From a virus (lineage: Duplodnaviria; Heunggongvirae; Uroviricota; Caudoviricetes), in IMG/VR virus record IMGVR_UViG_2579778573_000005: a DNA stretch of 44,005 nucleotides. One strand, given 5' to 3'. A program made the position numbers and the translations under genes. Below are positions 30,705-43,305 of this stretch, piece by piece. Under the pieces are notes generated by a model, which saw only the letters and a list, made by a program, of their open reading frames with translations, made no database searches and was not told the DNA's origin. Each line of letters begins with the position of its first letter. Position 1 is the stretch's first letter.

Positions 30705-31541
30705 TCAAAATGCTGAATTAGCAACGGATATAGCCGACTTTTTCCCCATTACCATCAATTTATCCAGTGTCATACTTCGCAGATTGTCGCTGTGGATCAC
30801 CAGATACCCTGCCCGCTCAGCGATCTCTTTGAAAGCGTCAAAGGTCATCAGATGTTCGCCTTTGGCAACATGGCGCATCCCGGTCACTTTTCCATTTTTG
30901 ATAGTGGTGATAAAAGAAAAATCTGGAATGGTTGGGTGATTTTCATCGAGTAGCAGGCAGTGGATGTATTCAATCGCCTCTAACATTTGCGTCTGTGACA
31001 GTTGTTCTATGTGAGAGACGGCGAAGCGTTGATGAATCATGGTGTAGGCATCGGGATACATCATGCCTTTCTTGCCGACCAGTATATTAACGGCATCACG
31101 CAAGGGAGTACGGTCATCGGTAGTTGTACTCCGCCTCTCTGGACGCTGGCTAAAATAACAATCTTCCAGCTTTTCGAAAACTTCCCAGGCCTGTTCTGTT
31201 TCCAGCATTTTGGCATGGCGAGCTGCGCCGCGTTCTGTCCAGAGAATGAGGGATCGGGTATGTTTAGCAACTGACTGACTATCTGTCAGTCTGTTTTTGA
31301 AGTCGCGTAATTCATTACCTTCCAGCTTAAAAAAATGCTTTCCTACGACAAATCTGGCGATGTTGCGCTTGAAGTTTTGCTGGATACCATTTACTTCCGT
31401 GCCATACAAACTGGCAAGCAATTCAGTAGTGATGACGGGAAGTTGGTTATGATGTAGCGGAGAAAGGGATTCCGCAGATATTTGGACTGTCATCGCAGTG
31501 GCCTCACTTAGTGTTTTTTTCATCACCACCAGCGACGCCAA
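30705..31541 (-). CDS. Phage antirepressor-like protein (ORF6N-type N-terminal domain)
   Basis: Track ORF 278 aa; start uncertain (internal ATGs at ~31523 and ~31493). Confidence 0.45.
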   Translation of the reverse strand: MASLVVMKKTLSEATAMTVQISAESLSPLHHNQLPVITTELLASLYGTEVNGIQQNFKRNIARFVVGKHFFKLEGNELRDFKNRLTDSQSVAKHTRSLILWTERGAARHAKMLETEQAWEVFEKLEDCYFSQRPERRSTTTDDRTPLRDAVNILVGKKGMMYPDAYTMIHQRFAVSHIEQLSQTQMLEAIEYIHCLLLDENHPTIPDFSFITTIKNGKVTGMRHVAKGEHLMTFDAFKEIAERAGYLVIHSDNLRSMTLDKLMVMGKKSAISVANSAF

Positions 31542-31765
31542 TCATCTGGTGGTGAGCTGTGCAGGGTTGGCGTAACCGGCTAAGTGAACCCGGCGCTTCC
31601 ACAGAAGCCCCCACACAGCCCACCATAATGCGAATGTGGCCGTGCCTAACACATAAAAAAACCGCTAACGCGGCTATGCGTCACTTAGATATCCGGGACG
31701 CCAATCCCGGCAACCGATTTTGCGGCTGCGCGGAAACTATAGCCCCGGACTTTTTCTAAGTCAAT

Positions 31766-32399: not shown

Positions 32400-32707
32400 G
32401 AAATTCTCCGCTCAAAATAAACAAACTGATTCACCGCTCCGATCGGCATTTCGAGTTTTTCTGCGATATCCTGGCGATTAATACCCGACTGATGTAATTC
32501 CCTTGCCAGCTCGATATCTTCCTGGAGGTATTTCACTGACTGGTGATAATTACCCCGCAGATACATACAGATTTTCAGCTCGCGCGCTTTTGTGCGTACC
32601 GCTGCACCGGTTCTGCCAATAAGCTGCCCTATACGTTCAACTGTCATGCTGCCCGCACATTGTTTGATGATTACGACTTCCGCACGCACCCACCGTTTGT
32701 ATTTCAT
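32396..32707 (-). CDS. Putative DNA-binding protein
   Basis: Track ORF 103 aa; two HTH-like segments. Confidence 0.3.
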   Translation of the reverse strand: MKYKRWVRAEVVIIKQCAGSMTVERIGQLIGRTGAAVRTKARELKICMYLRGNYHQSVKYLQEDIELARELHQSGINRQDIAEKLEMPIGAVNQFVYFERRIS

Positions 32708-32940
32708 TGTTCCATCACCCCTCTCCAGTAGTTCAGACGCTCTCTGAAAAATTCCCGGTACGTATCTGGCGTCATTCCGATTTGCTCAATCACGCTTCCC
32801 CTCGGAATACGTTTCTCAAAGAGTTGGCGGATCAGCGCCGCCGCTCGCATGTCGTAGTGCTCTTTAAGCTGGTATTCCTGGGGCCATTTGGCGCGGTTGT
32901 GTGGTAAGCCGGGCGGCAGGTAATCTGATTGCCCGGCCAT
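32704..32940 (-). CDS. Hypothetical small protein
   Basis: Track ORF 78 aa. Confidence 0.3.
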   Translation of the reverse strand: MAGQSDYLPPGLPHNRAKWPQEYQLKEHYDMRAAALIRQLFEKRIPRGSVIEQIGMTPDTYREFFRERLNYWRGVMEQ

Positions 32941-32941
32941 A

Positions 32942-33352
32942 TCACGCCCCTTTCTTTGCTATCGGAGTGATGGAACTCAGCAGCAGGCGGCAGCGACCAG
33001 GCGCGCCAATGCGCTGCCCGGTTATCTTGTCGTAAGTTTCATGCGGTGAGGCACACCAGGTTGTCGCTGTTTCGTGGAGTTTCACTTGCCGCTCACCATT
33101 TCTGCGAATCGCGATCCCGGTGTGCGTTTTGCCCTTACGTTTCACTGCTGGCGCTGCGGCTACGGATGCCTGACGGGCAGGCTTAGCAGGGGTTGAAAAA
33201 TTGCCTGCTTTAGGTCTTGGCACAAAAACCGCGCGAGTGCGCGCACGTGGCCCGACGTTCATATTCCACAAAATGACGTCGAGATAGTTTTTACCGTCGT
33301 CTATGTGTCCTTTGTCCGACGGGTACTCTAATTTGCCTGGAGTGGTGGTCAT
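32942..33352 (-). CDS. Hypothetical protein
   Basis: Track ORF 136 aa. Confidence 0.3.
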   Translation of the reverse strand: MTTTPGKLEYPSDKGHIDDGKNYLDVILWNMNVGPRARTRAVFVPRPKAGNFSTPAKPARQASVAAAPAVKRKGKTHTGIAIRRNGERQVKLHETATTWCASPHETYDKITGQRIGAPGRCRLLLSSITPIAKKGA

Positions 33353-33390
33353 TGGTCTTTCCTCGGTTATTTCACGCTGGTCAGGCGTGG

Positions 33391-34833
33391 TTAAAATTCA
33401 TTTGTGCGAGAATTATCGCTACGGGAATAACGTTTATTTTTTTCTGAGCGGTCGTTGGTAAGGCGATAAACCTCCTCATCGCTGATATCAATAACTGAGC
33501 CATTTTTCATCAGGGCATAGGCTGTTCCCGATGGTCCTTCGCGGTTCAGACGTAGCAACATTTCCATGAGATTTGGGTCGGCATTTTCGTTATAAACAGC
33601 ATCACGATAGAGGCCAATCCAGACATCGCAATCTTGTTCGATCTGCCCGGTATCTTTACTGTCGCTCGGGTTAGGCCGCTTATCGGCACGTTCTTCAAGC
33701 TTTCGGTTGAGTTGCGTCAGCAGGACCACAACACAATCCAGCTCTTTTGCCAGGTTCTTCAAACCGGTTGTGATATCGCCATACGCAATATCCCTACGCT
33801 CTGCCGATTCGGTCTTCATCAGCGTCAAATAGTCAATTGCCACCAGGCCAACCGAGCCACGCATCCGTTTAACTTTTCGACATTCAGCGACAATATGCGC
33901 AAGGGTTACACCTGCCGTGCTGTCAATCATCATGTTGGATTCGGCAATCTCCCCCGCCTTTGCTATTGCGAGACTCAATTCAGATTCATCGTTAGGGCCA
34001 AGATAAAAAATCTCCGAATTGACCTTTGCTTCCTGCGCAACCATGCGTTCAATGAGACTTCTGTCAGTCATTTCCAGGCTAAATACCAGCGTCGGCAAAC
34101 GATGATTCAGAGCAAAATGCACCGCAATTTTATTAAACGCGGCTGTCTTGCCCATTTTTGGCCGGGCACCAATAACGACCAATGAACCTCTTAACGCCTG
34201 CTTTGGTGCCATTAAGCGATCAAGGCTTTCGATTCCGAGCGTTAGTCCGGCTGCATGTGCTGGATCATTGAAACGGCGCTCAAGGTCATCTATCCAGTCA
34301 TCGACGACTTCACTTGCCGGACGCAAACCGCCCTTATGCCCGGTACGGGAATGTTCGGCCACCTGCCCAATCACTTGCTGAACGGCGGTGATCCTGTCAG
34401 TAGCAGTCATATCTGCAGGCTGGATCATAATCTCCAGACAAGAATTCAACTTTTCCACGGCATAACGAAGAATGGCTTTTTCACGTACAATTTTCGCGTA
34501 GTTGACCATTGAGGCCGGAATCGCCGCCTTACTCATTTCAGCCAGGTATGCGAATCCCCCCACGCGCTCATACAGCCCCTTCGATTCCATCAGTTCGGTC
34601 AGTGTTATCAGGTCAGTTGGTTTATCAGCTTGAAATAATCCTTTGATCTCCCGGTAGATAACCTGATGCGCATTGATATAAAACGTTTCCGGTTTCAGTA
34701 ACGCAAATACCGCATTGGTTCTGTCGTGGTCGGTATTCAGCATCAGACAGCCCAGAACAGCCTGTTCTGCGTCAACGCTGTACAGTGCAATCGCGTTATT
34801 TATCATTTGCGCGTTCTTCCTTGACCGAAACAT
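33391..34833 (-). CDS. Replicative DNA helicase (DnaB family)
   Basis: Track ORF 480 aa; N-terminal EQAVLGCLML and RecA-like ATPase core (GARPKMGKT); start probably ATG 34806. Confidence 0.85.
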   Translation of the reverse strand: MFRSRKNAQMINNAIALYSVDAEQAVLGCLMLNTDHDRTNAVFALLKPETFYINAHQVIYREIKGLFQADKPTDLITLTELMESKGLYERVGGFAYLAEMSKAAIPASMVNYAKIVREKAILRYAVEKLNSCLEIMIQPADMTATDRITAVQQVIGQVAEHSRTGHKGGLRPASEVVDDWIDDLERRFNDPAHAAGLTLGIESLDRLMAPKQALRGSLVVIGARPKMGKTAAFNKIAVHFALNHRLPTLVFSLEMTDRSLIERMVAQEAKVNSEIFYLGPNDESELSLAIAKAGEIAESNMMIDSTAGVTLAHIVAECRKVKRMRGSVGLVAIDYLTLMKTESAERRDIAYGDITTGLKNLAKELDCVVVLLTQLNRKLEERADKRPNPSDSKDTGQIEQDCDVWIGLYRDAVYNENADPNLMEMLLRLNREGPSGTAYALMKNGSVIDISDEEVYRLTNDRSEKNKRYSRSDNSRTNEF

Positions 34834-35551
34834 AGCAGCGTTCGGTAATCAGATAATCAAGATTTTTACGCCGCCAGAATCCTCCCCTGCCATTTGGCCT
34901 GTCCTCCAGCATCCAGCGACAATTGCCACCGATAAATTCCAGATAGGCCCGCCAACGGGACTCATTGAAATTGAATTTTTTCCAGAAAGTGCGAAGGTGT
35001 TTTTTTCTGCCGTCAGTGAGGATTTTCACTGGTGGCATCTCTGGCAAAATCTCGTGATAGGTATCGAGTATCACCTGATAATTTATTCTCTGGTCGGCAG
35101 GTTGTTGGGTGTCGGCGTCAGCCGATTCACCATCAGTAATAATCTCTGTAGTATTCTCTGTAAGAATGTTTGTTGGTTTTCCACGTACAGGCCTGGTGGT
35201 TTTCCCCTCACCTGTATGTGGTTTTTCCGCATCCTTGTATGCGGACGTAAGTAGCTGGCACAACACATCATTATCGATTTTGTAGTACAGCCTGGCAGGC
35301 AAGCCCTGTTTACGTTCCAGCAAGACGCCGAGACCACGTAGTTTTTTGCGCGCGCCCTCCTGCTCGTATCGTGAAAGCCCTGTTTCCTCTTCCCACTCAT
35401 CCTGGGTTTTATATACCCAGCCGTCGTCAGTTGTTCTGTTTGTCCAGTACGTCAACTGCGACAGAAACAATGCGGCAGTCACGCCCATTTCAAGACGGAT
35501 AAAACTTCTCTGGAAGGCTATGGGTCTATCAAGTAACGGGAGGATGTTCAT
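34796..35551 (-). CDS. Replication initiation protein (lambda O-like role)
   Basis: Track ORF 251 aa upstream of and overlapping the helicase gene; contains iteron-like repeats. Confidence 0.5.
   Translation of the reverse strand: MNILPLLDRPIAFQRSFIRLEMGVTAALFLSQLTYWTNRTTDDGWVYKTQDEWEEETGLSRYEQEGARKKLRGLGVLLERKQGLPARLYYKIDNDVLCQLLTSAYKDAEKPHTGEGKTTRPVRGKPTNILTENTTEIITDGESADADTQQPADQRINYQVILDTYHEILPEMPPVKILTDGRKKHLRTFWKKFNFNESRWRAYLEFIGGNCRWMLEDRPNGRGGFWRRKNLDYLITERCYVSVKEERANDK
35174..35240. repeat. Three iteron-like direct repeats (TGGTTTTCC ... TGTATG, ~22-bp period); candidate origin
   Basis: Repeats start near 35174, 35197 and 35218, inside the initiator gene, next to an AT-rich stretch. 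Confidence 0.4.
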
Positions 35552-35772
35552 ATGCCCAAAGCCTCTGAGAGAACGCGACAGCCAGCCTCATAGGCAGCGC
35601 CAGAGAGATTTTGCTCACGCAGTTTCGCTTTTTCTTCTTCGTACTTTTCCCATACAGAACGTGCAGCTGCGACGCGGCCATCGAATATGGGGCGGATCTC
35701 TGCAACATGTGCCGGGCGTCCATTCAGGTGCCAGCCGTTACGCCAGGTAATGCGGTCAATATGTCTTAACAT
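35548..35772 (-). CDS. Hypothetical small protein
   Basis: Track ORF 74 aa. Confidence 0.3.
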   Translation of the reverse strand: MLRHIDRITWRNGWHLNGRPAHVAEIRPIFDGRVAAARSVWEKYEEEKAKLREQNLSGAAYEAGCRVLSEALGI

Positions 35773-35811
35773 CGGTCTTTCCTCGGTATAAGTTAAACGC
35801 TGGTCAGGCGC

Positions 35812-36288
35812 TCATGCATGGTGGTCTTGCGCAGTGCGTATCACTGCTCCTCGCGTCGCTACCAGCGCCGCTATTGCTTCGTCAATTTCCTGAATAGTTA
35901 ACTCTGGCGCGAAGTGGAGATGTACAGCGTTAATCGCTTCCACCCCTTCTTTTGCCGCCAGCGTTGCCAGCAAAACGGGATCGCCCGGCGACTCCAGACG
36001 TGCCCGCCGTTCTGCGGGTAGCACGGCTTTCATCACACTGGCCAGCACCTGAGTTTTTCGGCGCGCCGCCGTTGTCTCGCCACGTAACCAGCGAAAGATT
36101 TTCTGCCGATTGTTGTTGATGGCTCTCCAGTCCACGTTGCCGTCCGCGTCCTCAAATTCATGTAGTCTCAACTCATCATTGCGTCCCTGACTGAACCAGG
36201 CCCGGCAGATTTCAATCGTGACGAGTTCCTGCCCTGCCCTTGCCGCCCAGGTCAAAATCTCTTTTTGTAATTCCTCTTGGTTTTCCAT
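35812..36288 (-). CDS. Putative CII-like lysogeny regulator
   Basis: Track ORF 158 aa immediately downstream of cro. Confidence 0.4.
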   Translation of the reverse strand: MENQEELQKEILTWAARAGQELVTIEICRAWFSQGRNDELRLHEFEDADGNVDWRAINNNRQKIFRWLRGETTAARRKTQVLASVMKAVLPAERRARLESPGDPVLLATLAAKEGVEAINAVHLHFAPELTIQEIDEAIAALVATRGAVIRTAQDHHA

Positions 36289-36346
36289 AGCGTCTCCTGT
36301 CGCTAAAAATTGATTACGCTTAATCAGATTTGGGGCTCACCAACAG

Positions 36347-36577
36347 TTAAGCTGCTTCCGTTTTAGGCAAGCTGTCATCTGGGTTTGGGTAAAGATCCGG
36401 TCTAAGATCATGAGGGGTCACGCGCCATTCAAGAGCTTCAGATGTGCGCAAAACCTCTTCACCGGGAACCCGTCCTTTGAACCAGAGGCTTACCGTTTGT
36501 GGTTTTTTCCCTAATCGCCGCCCTAACTCGGATTGACTCATTACGGAAAGAATTTTGTCTTGCAGTTGTTTATCCAT
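36347..36577 (-). CDS. cro: Cro-like HTH repressor
   Basis: 76 codons from ATG 36577 with AAGGAG RBS (track ORF extends to a TTG at 36613); HTH QSELGRRLGKKPQTVSLW; divergent from the repressor gene. Confidence 0.6.
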   Translation of the reverse strand: MDKQLQDKILSVMSQSELGRRLGKKPQTVSLWFKGRVPGEEVLRTSEALEWRVTPHDLRPDLYPNPDDSLPKTEAA

Positions 36578-36602
36578 ATGGACTCCTTGTGTCCGCGTCA
36601 TC

Positions 36603-36642
36603 ATTACAAACAATAACTGTAATTACAAATTATATTTGCAAT
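36603..36642. promoter_or_regulatory. Rightward operator region: two overlapping ATTACA-N9-TG(T/C)AAT sites plus pR -10
   Basis: ATTACAAACAATAACTGTAAT (36603-36623) and ATTACAAATTATATTTGCAAT (36622-36642); minus-strand TATAAT at 36629-36634. Confidence 0.5.
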
Positions 36643-36675
36643 GCTCCCTACAATTAAACCTTGTATCCTTACGGT

Positions 36676-37089
36676 ATGAACACAAAAACGAAAAACATGG
36701 CTTTTGCTAGCCGACTACAACGGATTCTAAAAGACTTAGGCTGGTCTCAATCTGAGTTAGCTCGCCATATTGGGGTTACGGCTCAATCAGTTCAGGCATG
36801 GTGTAATGGGGTAACTCCAAGAAAAGATAAATTAGACAAGCTAGCAAAAGTGACCGGATACCCTGTTCATTTTTTCTTCATGAATGAAGGGGAATATTTG
36901 GATGAATCCACACTACACCCGGGTAATTACAATCAAGAACTAACCCCGCAAGAACAGGCTCTACTGCAACTATTCAGAGGACTGCCTGAGAGCGAAAAAA
37001 ATAAATTAATCAATGAGCTAAAAGAAAAAAGAGAGCACTTCGATCTACTGCTAAAAGAACTACTTGAAGCCAAAAACCAGACAAAATAG
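36676..37089 (+). CDS. Prophage repressor (CI-like, HTH only, no S24 peptidase domain)
   Basis: Track ORF starts at TTG 36661; first ATG 36676; HTH WSQSELARHIGVTAQSVQAW. Confidence 0.65.
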   Translation: MNTKTKNMAFASRLQRILKDLGWSQSELARHIGVTAQSVQAWCNGVTPRKDKLDKLAKVTGYPVHFFFMNEGEYLDESTLHPGNYNQELTPQEQALLQLFRGLPESEKNKLINELKEKREHFDLLLKELLEAKNQTK

Positions 37090-37207
37090 TTCAGTTCAAA
37101 TTTCCAGGCCAGCCGCTGCTGGCATGCAACTTTCCCCTAACACAAAAACACCTTTACACAGTGAATATTTTTTTGCCCCTCACTACAAATTATTTTTTAA
37201 AAACACA

Positions 37208-38450: not shown

Positions 38451-40667
38451 ATGACCATTTTTAACGGCTTGTTAGAAGCGAAAAAAGGCGCGCTCAAAAA
38501 CGGCGCGATCCCGGCGCTGGCCATCGCCATCGCCGCCCCTAACAAAAAAGTTGCCGAGAACATCATCATCGGCAAATTGTGGGAAGCCTACCCTGACCAC
38601 GGCGACAACTATTTCAAACCTAAAATCTGGGAAGATGCCCCGGGCCAACCGCGCCCAGGCGTCGGTGAGTTTGATGAGACGTTTGCCACAGAACACAGTT
38701 TTGATGGCGAAAAATGGGTAGTTAACACTCCTGTTGATTCAGATTGCAGTTCAGCAGATATCTCACAGGTTAGCGACCTGATGAAACTGCCGGCTCGTGA
38801 ACGATTCGCCGCCGTTCTGCTGTTCAGCCACGACGCCAACGAAGTCGACAGTGAATTGCTTGTGCAGACGCGTGAATACCTGGAGATGCTCGATAACAGT
38901 GATACTGACAGTGAGGATGAGGTTGACGCGTTTAACCGCATCGTTCTTGATGCCATGGTGGCGTGTAAGCCCATCGAGTACATGCATATTGCTGGATTGA
39001 ATAATCTGGTACATGCAATTTTGGCAAGTTGCGATACCCAGGAACAAAACCCGACCAGTTGGACTATCTCCAAATTTATAAAAAAATGGGTAGAGAATCC
39101 CGGTAAACGAGATGAAATGCTGCCGGAGGTAAAACCAGAAACAGCATCCGCACGTCCTTACAAACAGACTCACGCCACTCTGGATCGTGAAATTGCCTGC
39201 GCCCTGTTACCTGTTGCCCCGGAAAAAATCACCCCCAGCATCCTGAAAGCGGCAGACGAAATAATCAGTCAGGACAGGGAAGATTTTAAACGCTGGTCAA
39301 TGGCCTTGCGCACAACGGATCAGATCCTTGCCTATGACCGCGCATCAGTATTCGGTGTTATTCAGAGCGCCCCCGCAAAAGACACGTACCACTTCCCACA
39401 ATCCCTGCGCAGTCACATCGACAACTGGCTGCAAGCTAACGGGCAGCGTGATGCAAATGCTGTTGAAGAGAAGCCAAAGGAAGCAGCACCCAAGGATGAT
39501 GTAAAAGTCACCAACCACGGCGGCGGACGATTCTCAATTGATGGGATGATGTCAGAAACACCCTCAAATCAGGGCGAAAAAAGCGAAGCTGCAAATGCTG
39601 GAGAACGTAGTTTGCAGCAGTTGCGTGAGCAGTTTGTCACGCCTCGCCATGTGTATGACGTACCTGAAAATAACGCCGTATCACAGAGGGAACCTGCAGC
39701 TATTACCCTGGCAGAAGAGACTCCTCCACAAGAACAACTTAGCGAGCAGGTAAAGGATCTGGTGCAGAACGTTGACGCGCTGGTTGAGCGGATCCATGCC
39801 GAAGAGCACAAGCGGCAGAATGCAATCTCAGCTATCGAAACGGAGTTAAAGGACTCAGATGACACGGATAACCTGGCATTGTGGAAGAACGTATTCAAAA
39901 CCGATGAGCGCTTCACCAGTGCTTTCTCTCAGAATGGCGGCGGCACATCCATCAACGGCACTTATATAGCGATGAAAGCGACTCGCGAATTTGGGCCATT
40001 TGGTATTGGCTGGGGGGTAGAGGTGCTGGAGGAGCGCTTTGATAAAGGCGCACCAATAGTTCGCAAAAAACAGGTTGGTGAAAAAATAGAATGGGATCTG
40101 ATTCAAGACGGTGTTGGCGGGTACCTATGTGAAATGCACCACACCATGAAAGTGAGAGTCTGGTACATATTGAATGGGGTACGCGGTGAGTCCGAGGCTT
40201 ACGGATGCACACCTTATATCTACGACACTAAATACGGACCAACAAGCGACGGCGAAGCACCGAAGAAATCCTGGACGGATGCTGTTAAGAAAGCGCTATC
40301 CCCTCTCGGATTCAGCGCCGATATTTTCATGGGCCTGTACGACAATCCGGAATACCGCCAGAGGAATAAAGCTGAGTTTGATATCAAGAATGCCAGCGAG
40401 AATGCGGAAGATGCTACCCGTCTGCGTAAGGAACTGGATGAGAAGCTTATCAACGTTGCCAATACGCTGGCCGCCGCGGTAACCGCCAACGAAGTAAACA
40501 AGGTATTTGGCCTCATCGCCCGCGAAGTGGATGTACACAGGAAAGCAGCGGAAACCAAAGGCGATAAAGAATATTCATCGTATCTGGGATCACGTCTGCG
40601 CCGTATCACCGACATTAAAACTGAACGCCTCGCCGCCCTTACCGCTGCACAGGAGCAAACAGCATGA
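38451..40667 (+). CDS. Large early protein of unknown function
   Basis: Track ORF 738 aa; GAGGAAAGACCA RBS module; acidic N-terminal half; no family recognised by eye. Confidence 0.5.
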   Translation: MTIFNGLLEAKKGALKNGAIPALAIAIAAPNKKVAENIIIGKLWEAYPDHGDNYFKPKIWEDAPGQPRPGVGEFDETFATEHSFDGEKWVVNTPVDSDCSSADISQVSDLMKLPARERFAAVLLFSHDANEVDSELLVQTREYLEMLDNSDTDSEDEVDAFNRIVLDAMVACKPIEYMHIAGLNNLVHAILASCDTQEQNPTSWTISKFIKKWVENPGKRDEMLPEVKPETASARPYKQTHATLDREIACALLPVAPEKITPSILKAADEIISQDREDFKRWSMALRTTDQILAYDRASVFGVIQSAPAKDTYHFPQSLRSHIDNWLQANGQRDANAVEEKPKEAAPKDDVKVTNHGGGRFSIDGMMSETPSNQGEKSEAANAGERSLQQLREQFVTPRHVYDVPENNAVSQREPAAITLAEETPPQEQLSEQVKDLVQNVDALVERIHAEEHKRQNAISAIETELKDSDDTDNLALWKNVFKTDERFTSAFSQNGGGTSINGTYIAMKATREFGPFGIGWGVEVLEERFDKGAPIVRKKQVGEKIEWDLIQDGVGGYLCEMHHTMKVRVWYILNGVRGESEAYGCTPYIYDTKYGPTSDGEAPKKSWTDAVKKALSPLGFSADIFMGLYDNPEYRQRNKAEFDIKNASENAEDATRLRKELDEKLINVANTLAAAVTANEVNKVFGLIAREVDVHRKAAETKGDKEYSSYLGSRLRRITDIKTERLAALTAAQEQTA

Positions 40668-41233
40668 GCACTGCTATCGCTATTGCAAAAGAATATGCCA
40701 GTCTGATTGACCTGTTAGAAACCGCCGATGAACTGACGCCAGAGATGATCGCCGACACGCTTGAAGGCATGGAAGGAGAACTGGGAGACAAACTGGACGC
40801 CATGATGGTCATCTGCCGTAATTTACAGGGCAATGCCAATACCTGCGCTGAAGAAATGTCTCGCCTGGCAACCCGTAAGACGTCCTTTGAAGGCAAGGAA
40901 AAAGCAATTCGAAAGCATATGCTCACCTGCCTGCAAGCTGCTGGCCTGGATAAACTGAAAACCGCAAAAAACACATTTACTGATGCACAGGGGGCTATCC
41001 GGGTAATTATCGATAGCAAAGATAAGATCCCGGATGAGTATGAGGGCGTGTCACTTGTTGATGTAGAAACGGTTATTACACCAAACAAGCGAGCCATTAA
41101 AGAAGTGATTGAATCTGCGGAGGCGGTTGCCGCCGAAATACTGGCGCGTGGAGAAACACCACCAGCCGAGTTATTAAACCCGGTACCAGGCGCACATCTG
41201 GAACGCGGCGAACGGTCACTGAGGATACGCTAA
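40664..41233 (+). CDS. Gp157-like protein (siphovirus Gp157 family resemblance)
   Basis: Track ORF 189 aa; N-terminal pattern EYASLIDLLE...ADTLEGMEGE. Confidence 0.4.
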   Translation: MSTAIAIAKEYASLIDLLETADELTPEMIADTLEGMEGELGDKLDAMMVICRNLQGNANTCAEEMSRLATRKTSFEGKEKAIRKHMLTCLQAAGLDKLKTAKNTFTDAQGAIRVIIDSKDKIPDEYEGVSLVDVETVITPNKRAIKEVIESAEAVAAEILARGETPPAELLNPVPGAHLERGERSLRIR

Positions 41234-41689: not shown

Positions 41690-41888
41690 ATCAAAGCAAT
41701 GTGAGGCTCTTCGCCGGGCTGGAATTTTCTTCATGGAAAGGGCTGACGGACACCCAAAAACAACCTGGGGCCATTTCATGAACCCAATAAAATTTCGCAA
41801 TTTACAGGAGGTGACGACGCGAAAAGATGATGAACCTGATTTTGGAGCAATATTTAATGGCCGGAAAGAGAAAGAACCCAGCAGATAA
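41625..41888 (+). CDS. DUF4224-like protein upstream of integrase (possible excisionase/directionality factor)
   Basis: Track ORF 87 aa; IITREEMVELTG...RRAGIFF pattern; GAGGAAAGACC RBS module. Confidence 0.5.
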   Translation: MKSDHDIITREEMVELTGSPLKSKQCEALRRAGIFFMERADGHPKTTWGHFMNPIKFRNLQEVTTRKDDEPDFGAIFNGRKEKEPSR

Positions 41889-42873
41889 CTGGATGCCGCC
41901 TCGTGTTTACCAGGGCAAAGCGGCCTACGAATTCAGGAATAAAGATAACAAAGCGATACGCCTGTGCGCATTGGATGCACCACGATCAGCCGTATGGCTG
42001 GCATATGAAAAAGCGGTCGGTGACGAAAAAGAAAGAAATACTTTTCAGGCGCTCACGGAACAATTCATGACCTCCCCTGATTTTATGGATTTGGCAGTCG
42101 AAACCCGGAAAGACTACACAAAATATTCCGGAAAAGTTCTGCCTGTCTTCGGGAAGATCGACCCGGATAAAATCAAACCTGAACATATTCGGCGCTATAT
42201 GGATCAACGCGGTTTATCAAGCCGAACTCAGGCAAACAGGGAAAAAAGCTTTATGTCCCGGGTATTCCGTTGGGGTTATGAACGAGGTTATGTTCAGAGG
42301 AATCCTTGTCAGGGAGTTAAACAGTTTAAAGAGAAAGCTCGCGAACGTTATATTACGGATGAAGAATATCAGGCCGTTTATGAAGTGTCTCCTGATGTTG
42401 TTCGCGTAGCAATGGAGATTGCCTACTTATGCGTGGCCAGACAGAGTGATGTACTTTCATTGCAGAAAGACCAGCTGTTCGATTCCGGGATCTACATTCG
42501 TCAGGGAAAAACCGGCGTTAAGCAAATCAAAGCCTGGTCGCCTCGTCTGCAGAAAGCGATAGCTCTGGCTCGTTCTCTGCCATTAAAAACGGGAATCAGT
42601 AGCCTGTTTGTGATTCATCAAACTACCGGTGGCAAGTATACCCGTGATGGTTTTAACTCTCGTTGGCGTGATGTCAAAGCGGCAGCACAGGAAAAATATC
42701 CTCATCTGCAAATAGACTTCACATTTCATGATCTGAAAGCAAAAGGTATCTCTGATCTGGAAGGCAGCCTGGAAGAGAAGCAAGCAATTTCCGGGCATAA
42801 GAACCCGCGACAGACAGCAGCATATGACCGGAAAGTTAAAGTAGTGCCCGTAGTTGGTGGCCAGAGAAAATGA
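41857..42873 (+). CDS. int: Tyrosine integrase
   Basis: Track ORF 41827-42873; likely start ATG 41857; ends 130 bp from the tRNA-Leu 3' end. Confidence 0.8.
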   Translation: MAGKRKNPADNWMPPRVYQGKAAYEFRNKDNKAIRLCALDAPRSAVWLAYEKAVGDEKERNTFQALTEQFMTSPDFMDLAVETRKDYTKYSGKVLPVFGKIDPDKIKPEHIRRYMDQRGLSSRTQANREKSFMSRVFRWGYERGYVQRNPCQGVKQFKEKARERYITDEEYQAVYEVSPDVVRVAMEIAYLCVARQSDVLSLQKDQLFDSGIYIRQGKTGVKQIKAWSPRLQKAIALARSLPLKTGISSLFVIHQTTGGKYTRDGFNSRWRDVKAAAQEKYPHLQIDFTFHDLKAKGISDLEGSLEEKQAISGHKNPRQTAAYDRKVKVVPVVGGQRK

Positions 42874-42878
42874 ATGAT

Positions 42879-42913
42879 GATGCGTCCAGAGAAAAATCAT
42901 CTTCGGACGCATC
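42879..42913. promoter_or_regulatory. 9-bp inverted repeat in the int-tRNA spacer (att-region element or int terminator)
   Basis: GATGCGTCC ... GGACGCATC with 17-nt loop. Confidence 0.3.
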
Positions 42914-42933
42914 TTCGGAAATGAGAAAGAAGA

Positions 42934-42960
42934 TACAAAAAAACCACCCGAAGGTGGTTT
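42934..42960 (-). terminator. Rho-independent terminator downstream of tRNA-Leu
   Basis: Minus strand AAACCACC-TTCG-GGTGGTTT followed by TTTTT. Confidence 0.65.
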
Positions 42961-43003
42961 CACGACACTGCTTATTGCTTTGATTTTATTCTTATCTTTC
43001 CCA

Positions 43004-43090
43004 TGGTACCCGGAGCGGGACTTGAACCCGCACAGCGCGAACGCCGAGGGATTTTAAATCCCTTGTGTCTACCGATTCCACCATCCGGGC
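43004..43090 (-). tRNA. leuZ: tRNA-Leu (anticodon UAA)
   Basis: 87-nt reverse complement reads GCCCGGATGGTGGAATCGGTAGACACAAGGGATTTAAAATCCC...CCA with long variable arm. Confidence 0.9.
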
Positions 43091-43102
43091 TCGGGAAAAA
43101 AG

Positions 43103-43176
43103 TGGAGGCGCGTTCCGGAGTCGAACCGGACTAGACGGATTTGCAATCCGCTACATAACCGCTTTGTTAACGCGCC
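43103..43176 (-). tRNA. cysT: tRNA-Cys (anticodon GCA)
   Basis: 74-nt reverse complement reads GGCGCGTTAACAAAGCGG...GATTGCAAATC...TCCA. Confidence 0.9.
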
Positions 43177-43229
43177 AAATTCTTCAGGCCTTTCAGCCAG
43201 ACATCCGCTGACGCCGATGCCTTTTAAAC

Positions 43230-43305
<76 letters not shown>

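Follow-up and report, generated by a model that had tools for sequence, protein, structure and literature searches.

Within the replication initiator gene of an E. coli prophage we found three direct repeats which are very probably the iterons of an in-gene replication origin of the type known from lambda and P22. The repeats are followed by an AT-rich segment and an imperfect palindrome. Judging from sequence comparison, the complete element at positions 35108–35233 of the window, i.e. the whole stretch of 44,005 nucleotides analyzed, is likely to be the vegetative (theta-type) replication origin of the prophage. The initiator gene was called as an open reading frame of 756 nt on the minus strand (34796–35551) encoding 251 amino acids. 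The iterons occupy nt 319–386 of the gene (amino acids 107–129) and the full element nt 319–444 (amino acids 107–148), in the part of the gene which codes for the interdomain linker of the protein.

The core GGAAAACCA (coding strand) is present three times between 35166 and 35233 with a period of exactly 23 nt, and not of about 22 bp as an earlier note on this DNA had stated. All three units lie on the minus strand: iteron 1 (GATGCGGAAAAACCACATACAG) at 35212–35233, iteron 2 (GTGAGGGGAAAACCACCAGGCCT) at 35189–35211 and iteron 3 (GTACGTGGAAAACCAACAAACAT) at 35166–35188. The core of iteron 1, GGAAAAACCA, is in third-codon-position phase, the core of iteron 2 starts at a second and that of iteron 3 at a first codon position. 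On the coding (minus) strand the hexamer GGAAAA is found with its first base at nt 324, 347 and 370 of the gene. Read on the plus strand, the array shows TGGTTTTCC at 35174–35182 and 35197–35205 and TGGTTTTTCC at 35219–35228. The TGTATG arm which had been described as part of each repeat does follow copies 2 and 3, but after copy 1 it is replaced by the inverted form ACGTACA. The iteron unit comprises about 22–23 bp and its core is partly dyad-symmetric (TGyGG-AAAA-CCAsCA). The phage in the window has only three iterons, which are imperfect, and their partial dyad symmetry is weak (arms of 4–5 nt), unlike that of many arrays in the initiator family, which are clearly symmetric around an A-tract (TGGTCAAAATGACCA, TGGCGGAAAGCGCCA, TGGCGGAATCCGCCA).

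As an array we scored three copies of a 9-mer with at most one mismatch, a period of 18–26 nt and steps equal to within 1 nt. Such a triple occurs once in the 44-kb window, and no comparable array was detected elsewhere in it. The triple turned up in one out of 500 dinucleotide-shuffled windows and in none out of 5000 codon-shuffled versions of the initiator gene, so the presence of three direct repeats in this gene is confirmed and is not random. Tandem Repeats Finder reported nothing between 34500 and 35900, since the units have diverged too far on either side of the core. The exact sequence TGGTTTTCC has only three copies in the 44 kb when both strands are considered. The third copy (36278–36286, plus strand) is located about 1.05 kb from the array on the start codon of a cII-like/YdaT gene, where it reads ATGGAAAACCAA on the coding strand. 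This isolated core could be due to chance or could be a regulatory initiator site.

A repetitive peptide linker of low complexity (G/E-K-P/T, T-E-x-T) might also have given rise to the repeats as a mere by-product. The encoded segment is indeed rich in Lys, Thr, Glu and Pro and predicted to be disordered, and 12-nt ACAGAGA repeats located directly behind the iterons are in frame in the window (TEN TTE II). However, owing to the 23-nt period each core is read in a different frame, so that a peptide repeat does not account for them, and the codon shuffles described above, which retain no array, likewise argue against such an origin. Conservation points in the same direction. We compared six homologues with N-domain identities of 66–80%, which represent related and not independent lineages. 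Among them third-codon-position identity is 0.32–0.66 over codons 1–100, which encode the folded domain, and 0.63–1.0 over codons 101–137, a stretch with more variable amino acids; compared to the folded domain, the linker hence has better conserved synonymous positions and a less conserved protein sequence. Within the array of these diverged homologues the cores are kept and the spacers vary. In addition, the CAGAGA repeats show periods of 10, 11 or 13 nt in some other members of the family, and a purely peptide-based cause is therefore ruled out for them. On the basis of codon phase and synonymous-site conservation we rejected the peptide-repeat reading, which appears hardly credible. The substitution patterns show a constraint on the repeats that acts on the DNA and not on the protein. 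Such embedded DNA signals may be tolerated at this place because the encoded linker is predicted to be disordered.

The AT-rich stretch noticed next to the repeats is real. It extends from 35132 to 35173 (minus strand), has a GC content of 29% and is proposed here as the DNA-unwinding element. It represents the 42-nt segment with the lowest GC content of the gene and ranks within the lowest 3.9% across the window. With 71% AT over 42 nt its AT-richness is moderate; the AT-rich tract of lambda contains about 80% AT. Directly after iteron 3 the segment carries two 12-nt repeats on the minus strand, TACAGAGAATAC at 35151–35162 and TACAGAGATTAT at 35139–35150. These are the only two exact copies of ACAGAGAWTAY in the window. 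Third-position identity in the AT-rich segment reaches 0.87–1.0 among the diverged homologues. In 35 of the 77 loci of the initiator family the arrays are followed by pairs of CAGAGA spaced 10–13 nt apart, compared to none of the 77 in either of two controls. Repeats of the form ACAGAGAnTAC span the loci L006 to L141 at about nt 390–550 of the gene, and the CAGAGA repeats are kept at protein identities of 35–50% in hosts from Enterobacteria to Chloroflexota. The AT-rich tracts of both lambda and P22 contain similar repeats (ACAAAAGACA). In a full-text literature search the repeat strings turned up solely in unrelated primer sequences, and no paper describing ACAGAGAnTAC repeats was retrieved.

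The AT-rich segment is followed by an imperfect palindrome, GGTGAATCGGC-TGAC-GCCGACACC, at 35108–35131 (minus strand), located at the start of the C-domain module. Across 11 distinct sequences, a small sample of related loci (the equivalents in L004–L044), 87% of the cells are paired. The central pair is A-T in seven, G-C in two and T-A in two of these sequences without any mismatch, and the exchanges affect synonymous third positions of Ser and Ala codons. In the same 11 sequences the palindrome tracks the type of the C-domain, even when it is combined with a different N-domain (L019, L026). Loci with a P22-type C-domain show a palindrome of their own at the same place (CCCCCTTACCCCC-AAAGGGGG, CCCCC..GGGGG), which is also present in P22.

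Related loci were taken from viral contigs and from one genome per species. Homologues with 35–55% identity possess their own arrays of 3–5 copies at the same position of the gene, mostly with a period of 23 nt and sometimes of 24 nt. An array of at least three copies was detected between gene nt 241 and 600 in 42 of the 77 loci, in none of the 77 equally long upstream controls and in five of the 77 downstream controls. No array was found by this strict criterion in the other 35 of the 77 surveyed loci. Hosts of the family include Enterobacteria, Aeromonas, Acinetobacter, Betaproteobacteria and Chloroflexota.

Several of these loci are mosaics. L008–L012 and L084–L087 combine the N-domain of the window and iterons of the GGAAAACCA type with a C-domain of the P22 gp18 type (hhalign probability of 96.8% against P22 gp18), and the identity of their helicase with that of the window amounts to only about 28%. 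Conversely, L019–L080 have the C-domain type of the window and a helicase 45–70% identical to it, along with unrelated N-domains and unrelated repeats, e.g. four copies of GTGGTGCAnnTCCTGCACC or repeats of 11 nt similar to the ones in phage L. Because of these mosaic loci we assign the iterons to the N-domain and the helicase type to the C-domain, as the two-domain model of the lambda initiator predicts. N-domain homology stops at amino acids 136–140 and C-domain homology starts at amino acids 121–141.

Such a junction might by itself keep the DNA alike. Homologous exchange of N- and C-modules could maintain a boundary sequence in which the repeats have no function: module swapping takes place exactly at the linker, and the most conserved DNA, beginning with TACAGAGA, sits at the junction. 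Part of the DNA conservation could indeed be due to recombination at this point. Conservation is periodic, however, with cores kept and spacers variable, which is not explained by a conversion tract, and distant homologues with different repeats share the 23-nt period and the position. Furthermore, the CAGAGA repeats persist from Enterobacteria to Chloroflexota and the changes in the palindrome are compensatory. A pure gene-conversion or boundary reading was thus judged unlikely on account of the periodic conservation and of distant lineages which keep the same grammar with different repeats, and functionless repeats would be very improbable. The computational tests of codon phase, synonymous conservation, linker position, covariation with the N-domain and flanking elements all favor the interpretation as iterons.

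For the proposed origin we envisage the following course of events. Dimers of the N-terminal winged-helix domain of the initiator would bind the three iterons of 22–23 bp. The resulting nucleoprotein complex would destabilize the adjoining AT-rich segment with its ACAGAGAWTAY 12-mers, and the C-terminal domain of the initiator would recruit the DnaB-type helicase of the phage, the product of the adjacent gene. Iteron binding, unwinding, helicase recruitment and origin activity are inferred.

As the main alternative, the initiator might bind the repeats chiefly for purposes of regulation or competition, such as autoregulating the early operon, titration or excluding related phages, and replication would start elsewhere in the prophage. 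In lambda the iterons by themselves suffice for a replication-silencing phenotype even when the AT-rich part is missing (PMC3349717), the lone exact core at the cII-like start codon (36278–36286) would suit a regulatory site, and covariation with the N-domain indicates binding specificity and not the firing of an origin. Yet iterons followed by conserved AT-rich 12-mers and a palindrome reproduce the layout of characterized origins. Moreover, the 44-kb window offers no second comparable array, and neither DnaA boxes nor further origin-like features were noticed in its replication region. We regard a mainly regulatory role as improbable and favor the function as an origin.

At the level of the family, the data might point to a distinct and widespread group of initiators whose origins follow a common grammar: lineage-specific 23-bp iterons, the invariant ACAGAGAnTAC and a palindrome belonging to the C-domain and helicase. 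We put this forward tentatively, as a possibility with somewhat less than even chances. ACAGAGAnTAC with its period of 10–13 nt would then be a specific element for unwinding or single-strand binding which goes beyond mere AT-richness, and the palindrome would belong to the C-domain/helicase module and mark the site of helicase loading. In the literature searched we found no description of a conserved unwinding code that is tied to an initiator family and separable from a helicase-linked palindrome.

The initiator protein itself has no match to a Pfam family (E ≤ 0.01) or to NCBIfam. In the AlphaFold2 model it consists of an N-terminal domain (amino acids 1–106, window positions 35234–35551, minus strand) with a predicted winged-helix fold, a disordered linker (amino acids 107–153 approximately, pLDDT below 50 for amino acids 109–153) and a helical C-terminal domain (approximately amino acids 158–250). 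In Foldseek the N-domain matched winged-helix proteins, among them two plasmid initiators (4pt7 and 5kbj) and DnaD-N (2v79); these matches are generic, with high probabilities and weak E-values of about 0.02–0.03. A search of PDB sequences with the profile of the initiator family identified no solved relative. A nucleotide search of a phage collection with the initiator gene did not identify a close phage, the best matches covering 37–41% of the gene at 65–72% identity. RefSeq labels of the protein are inconsistent, mostly “hypothetical protein” and in some cases “replication protein” with a shorter CDS. An example is L147 (NZ_CP023849.1, 2501–3193), where the CDS of 693 nt begins at an internal start. 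In the viral contig L005 (2452–3042) the initiator is cut off at about amino acids 183–196 through a frameshift. The annotation of the RefSeq stretch that we checked has no rep_origin or other origin feature.

We compared the element with known replication modules. [quoted passage not shown] A mid-O position of iterons and AT-rich tract is likewise given in PMC7466680, according to which Stx phages have six iterons and three suffice in lambda. P22 gene 18 contains four repeats of about 20 bp and gene 18 of phage L six 11-bp repeats, each distinct; the initiators of P22, L and lambda have their own iterons inside the coding region (PMC8022706).

The earlier statement that the iterons of lambda also lie inside O holds true: they are located at O nt 349–433. 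The P22 rep_origin covers nt 353–497 of gene 18, and the window element with gene nt 319–444 takes a comparable place. As in lambda and in the Stx phages 933W and P27, the element is situated in the middle of an initiator gene which belongs to a cro-cII-O type of early operon. Its iterons fall into the same range (about 18–23 bp with an A-tract in the center and inverted arms, spaced 20–24 bp), and the AT-rich region adjoins downstream in the direction of transcription. The two-domain organization of O with an N-terminal DNA-binding domain and a C-terminal domain that recruits the helicase machinery is likewise shared. Position in the mid-gene linker, at least three units of about 18–23 bp placed some two helical turns apart, with an A-tract and inverted arms, and an adjacent AT-rich region, as seen here, are characteristic of in-gene lambdoid origins. 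In contrast to lambda and its relatives with four to six iterons, the window has three, and the neighboring gene encodes the phage’s own DnaB-type helicase instead of a P-type loader.

The designation of the gene as O-like stands with respect to its architecture and to its PHROG matches (families 345, 9773 and 1347, “replication initiation O-like”), but not with respect to homology: the protein has no match to Phage_rep_O (PF04492), and comparison with lambda O was not significant in BLASTP (E = 3.4) or by hhalign profile comparison (probability of 0.07). Membership in the lambda O family was rejected because of the lack of detectable homology and of a P-type loader.

By its partner gene the closest analogue is the P22 18/12 module, the module of phage L being parallel. 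In P22, too, the initiator gene is followed by a phage gene for a DnaB-type helicase, and mid-gene repeats precede an AT-rich stretch with purine-rich repeats (two copies of ACAAAAGACAATAT) and then a palindrome. The two differ in the iteron core (TCGGTAAAAC in P22 versus GGAAAACCA in the window), in copy number (four versus three), in C-domain type and palindrome, and in the helicase, which is about 28% identical to gp12. In a single BLASTP comparison with P22 gp18 the initiator gave a collinear alignment of 223 amino acids with 22% identity at a marginal E-value of 4e-4. The profile of the initiator family matches gp18 strongly only via the alternative “RepO” C-domain of other members. Since homology to O is undetectable and similarity to gp18 marginal, the functional analogy rests on architecture.

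Iteron plasmid initiators (RepA_N, 4pt7 and 5kbj; Rep_3) share the winged-helix fold and the presence of repeats beside an AT-rich region. The window differs from them in that its helicase is encoded by the phage and its repeats are located within the gene; plasmid iterons are located outside the rep gene. Assignment to Rep_3 or RepA_N was rejected since there is no Pfam match, fold similarity is only weak and the repeats are inside the gene.

An in-gene origin is the ordinary arrangement for phages of this kind, and as a concept it adds little beyond lambda and P22. Modestly newer is the family level, with a strict 23-bp period, an invariant ACAGAGA and a helicase-linked palindrome in a family that has no curated model. 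The interpretation as an origin gives a probable start site of replication for a prophage present in 416 of 5426 complete E. coli genomes, including O25b:H4 (ST131-type) clinical isolates; the initiator gene was found with at least 99% identity in 415 of these 5426 genomes. The mosaic loci can be regarded as a natural experiment in modular initiator evolution, with N-domain and iterons as one unit and C-domain, palindrome and helicase as another. For this Pfam-less family a rule for origin annotation would be an array of 23-nt period followed by CAGAGA repeats at about nt 300–500 of the gene. As a candidate minimal origin, the element might also be used in vectors or to gauge prophage induction.

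The position of the initiator gene upstream of a DnaB-type helicase gene, as pointed out earlier, is supported by Pfam matches of the latter, which encodes a full-length helicase, to DnaB_C (2.4e-62) and DnaB (3e-26). The helicase gene is located at 33391–34833 on the minus strand, its start is overlapped by the end of the initiator gene on the same strand, and its product presumably acts together with the C-domain of the initiator. No gene for a lambda-P-type loader is present between or directly after the two genes. Upstream of the initiator gene a 74-aa open reading frame, the cII-like/YdaT gene and a cro-like/YdaS gene are located on the same strand, and a gene for a cI-like HTH protein is divergently oriented on the other strand. 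The order cI-like, cro-like, cII-like, small open reading frame, initiator and helicase is that of a lambdoid early-right operon. Scanning 33300–37200 for sigma-70 promoters and terminators yielded background levels and no oop-like feature, and a search for DnaA boxes gave none in the vicinity of the replication genes.

The window as a whole represents an E. coli prophage. A tyrosine integrase gene (41827–42873, plus strand) adjoins a tRNA cluster of Leu(taa), Cys(gca) and Gly(gcc) at 43004–43305 (minus strand), and the region 41827–43305 is probably the prophage end with the attachment site. Rfam matches at 31545–31742 (minus strand) comprise the C4 antisense RNA (75 bits), its a1/b1 targets and isrK. 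They are situated directly 5’ of an anti-repressor (Ant) gene at 30705–31541 (minus strand). C4 antisense RNA and Ant constitute an antisense control module like immI of P1/P7 within a lambdoid prophage. Just 3’ of the replication genes a protein resembling DNA polymerase III theta is encoded at 32704–32940 (minus strand). On the plus strand the window further encodes an exonuclease-family protein of 738 amino acids (PHROG 2489, 38451–40667) and a Mu Gam-like end-protection protein (40664–41233).
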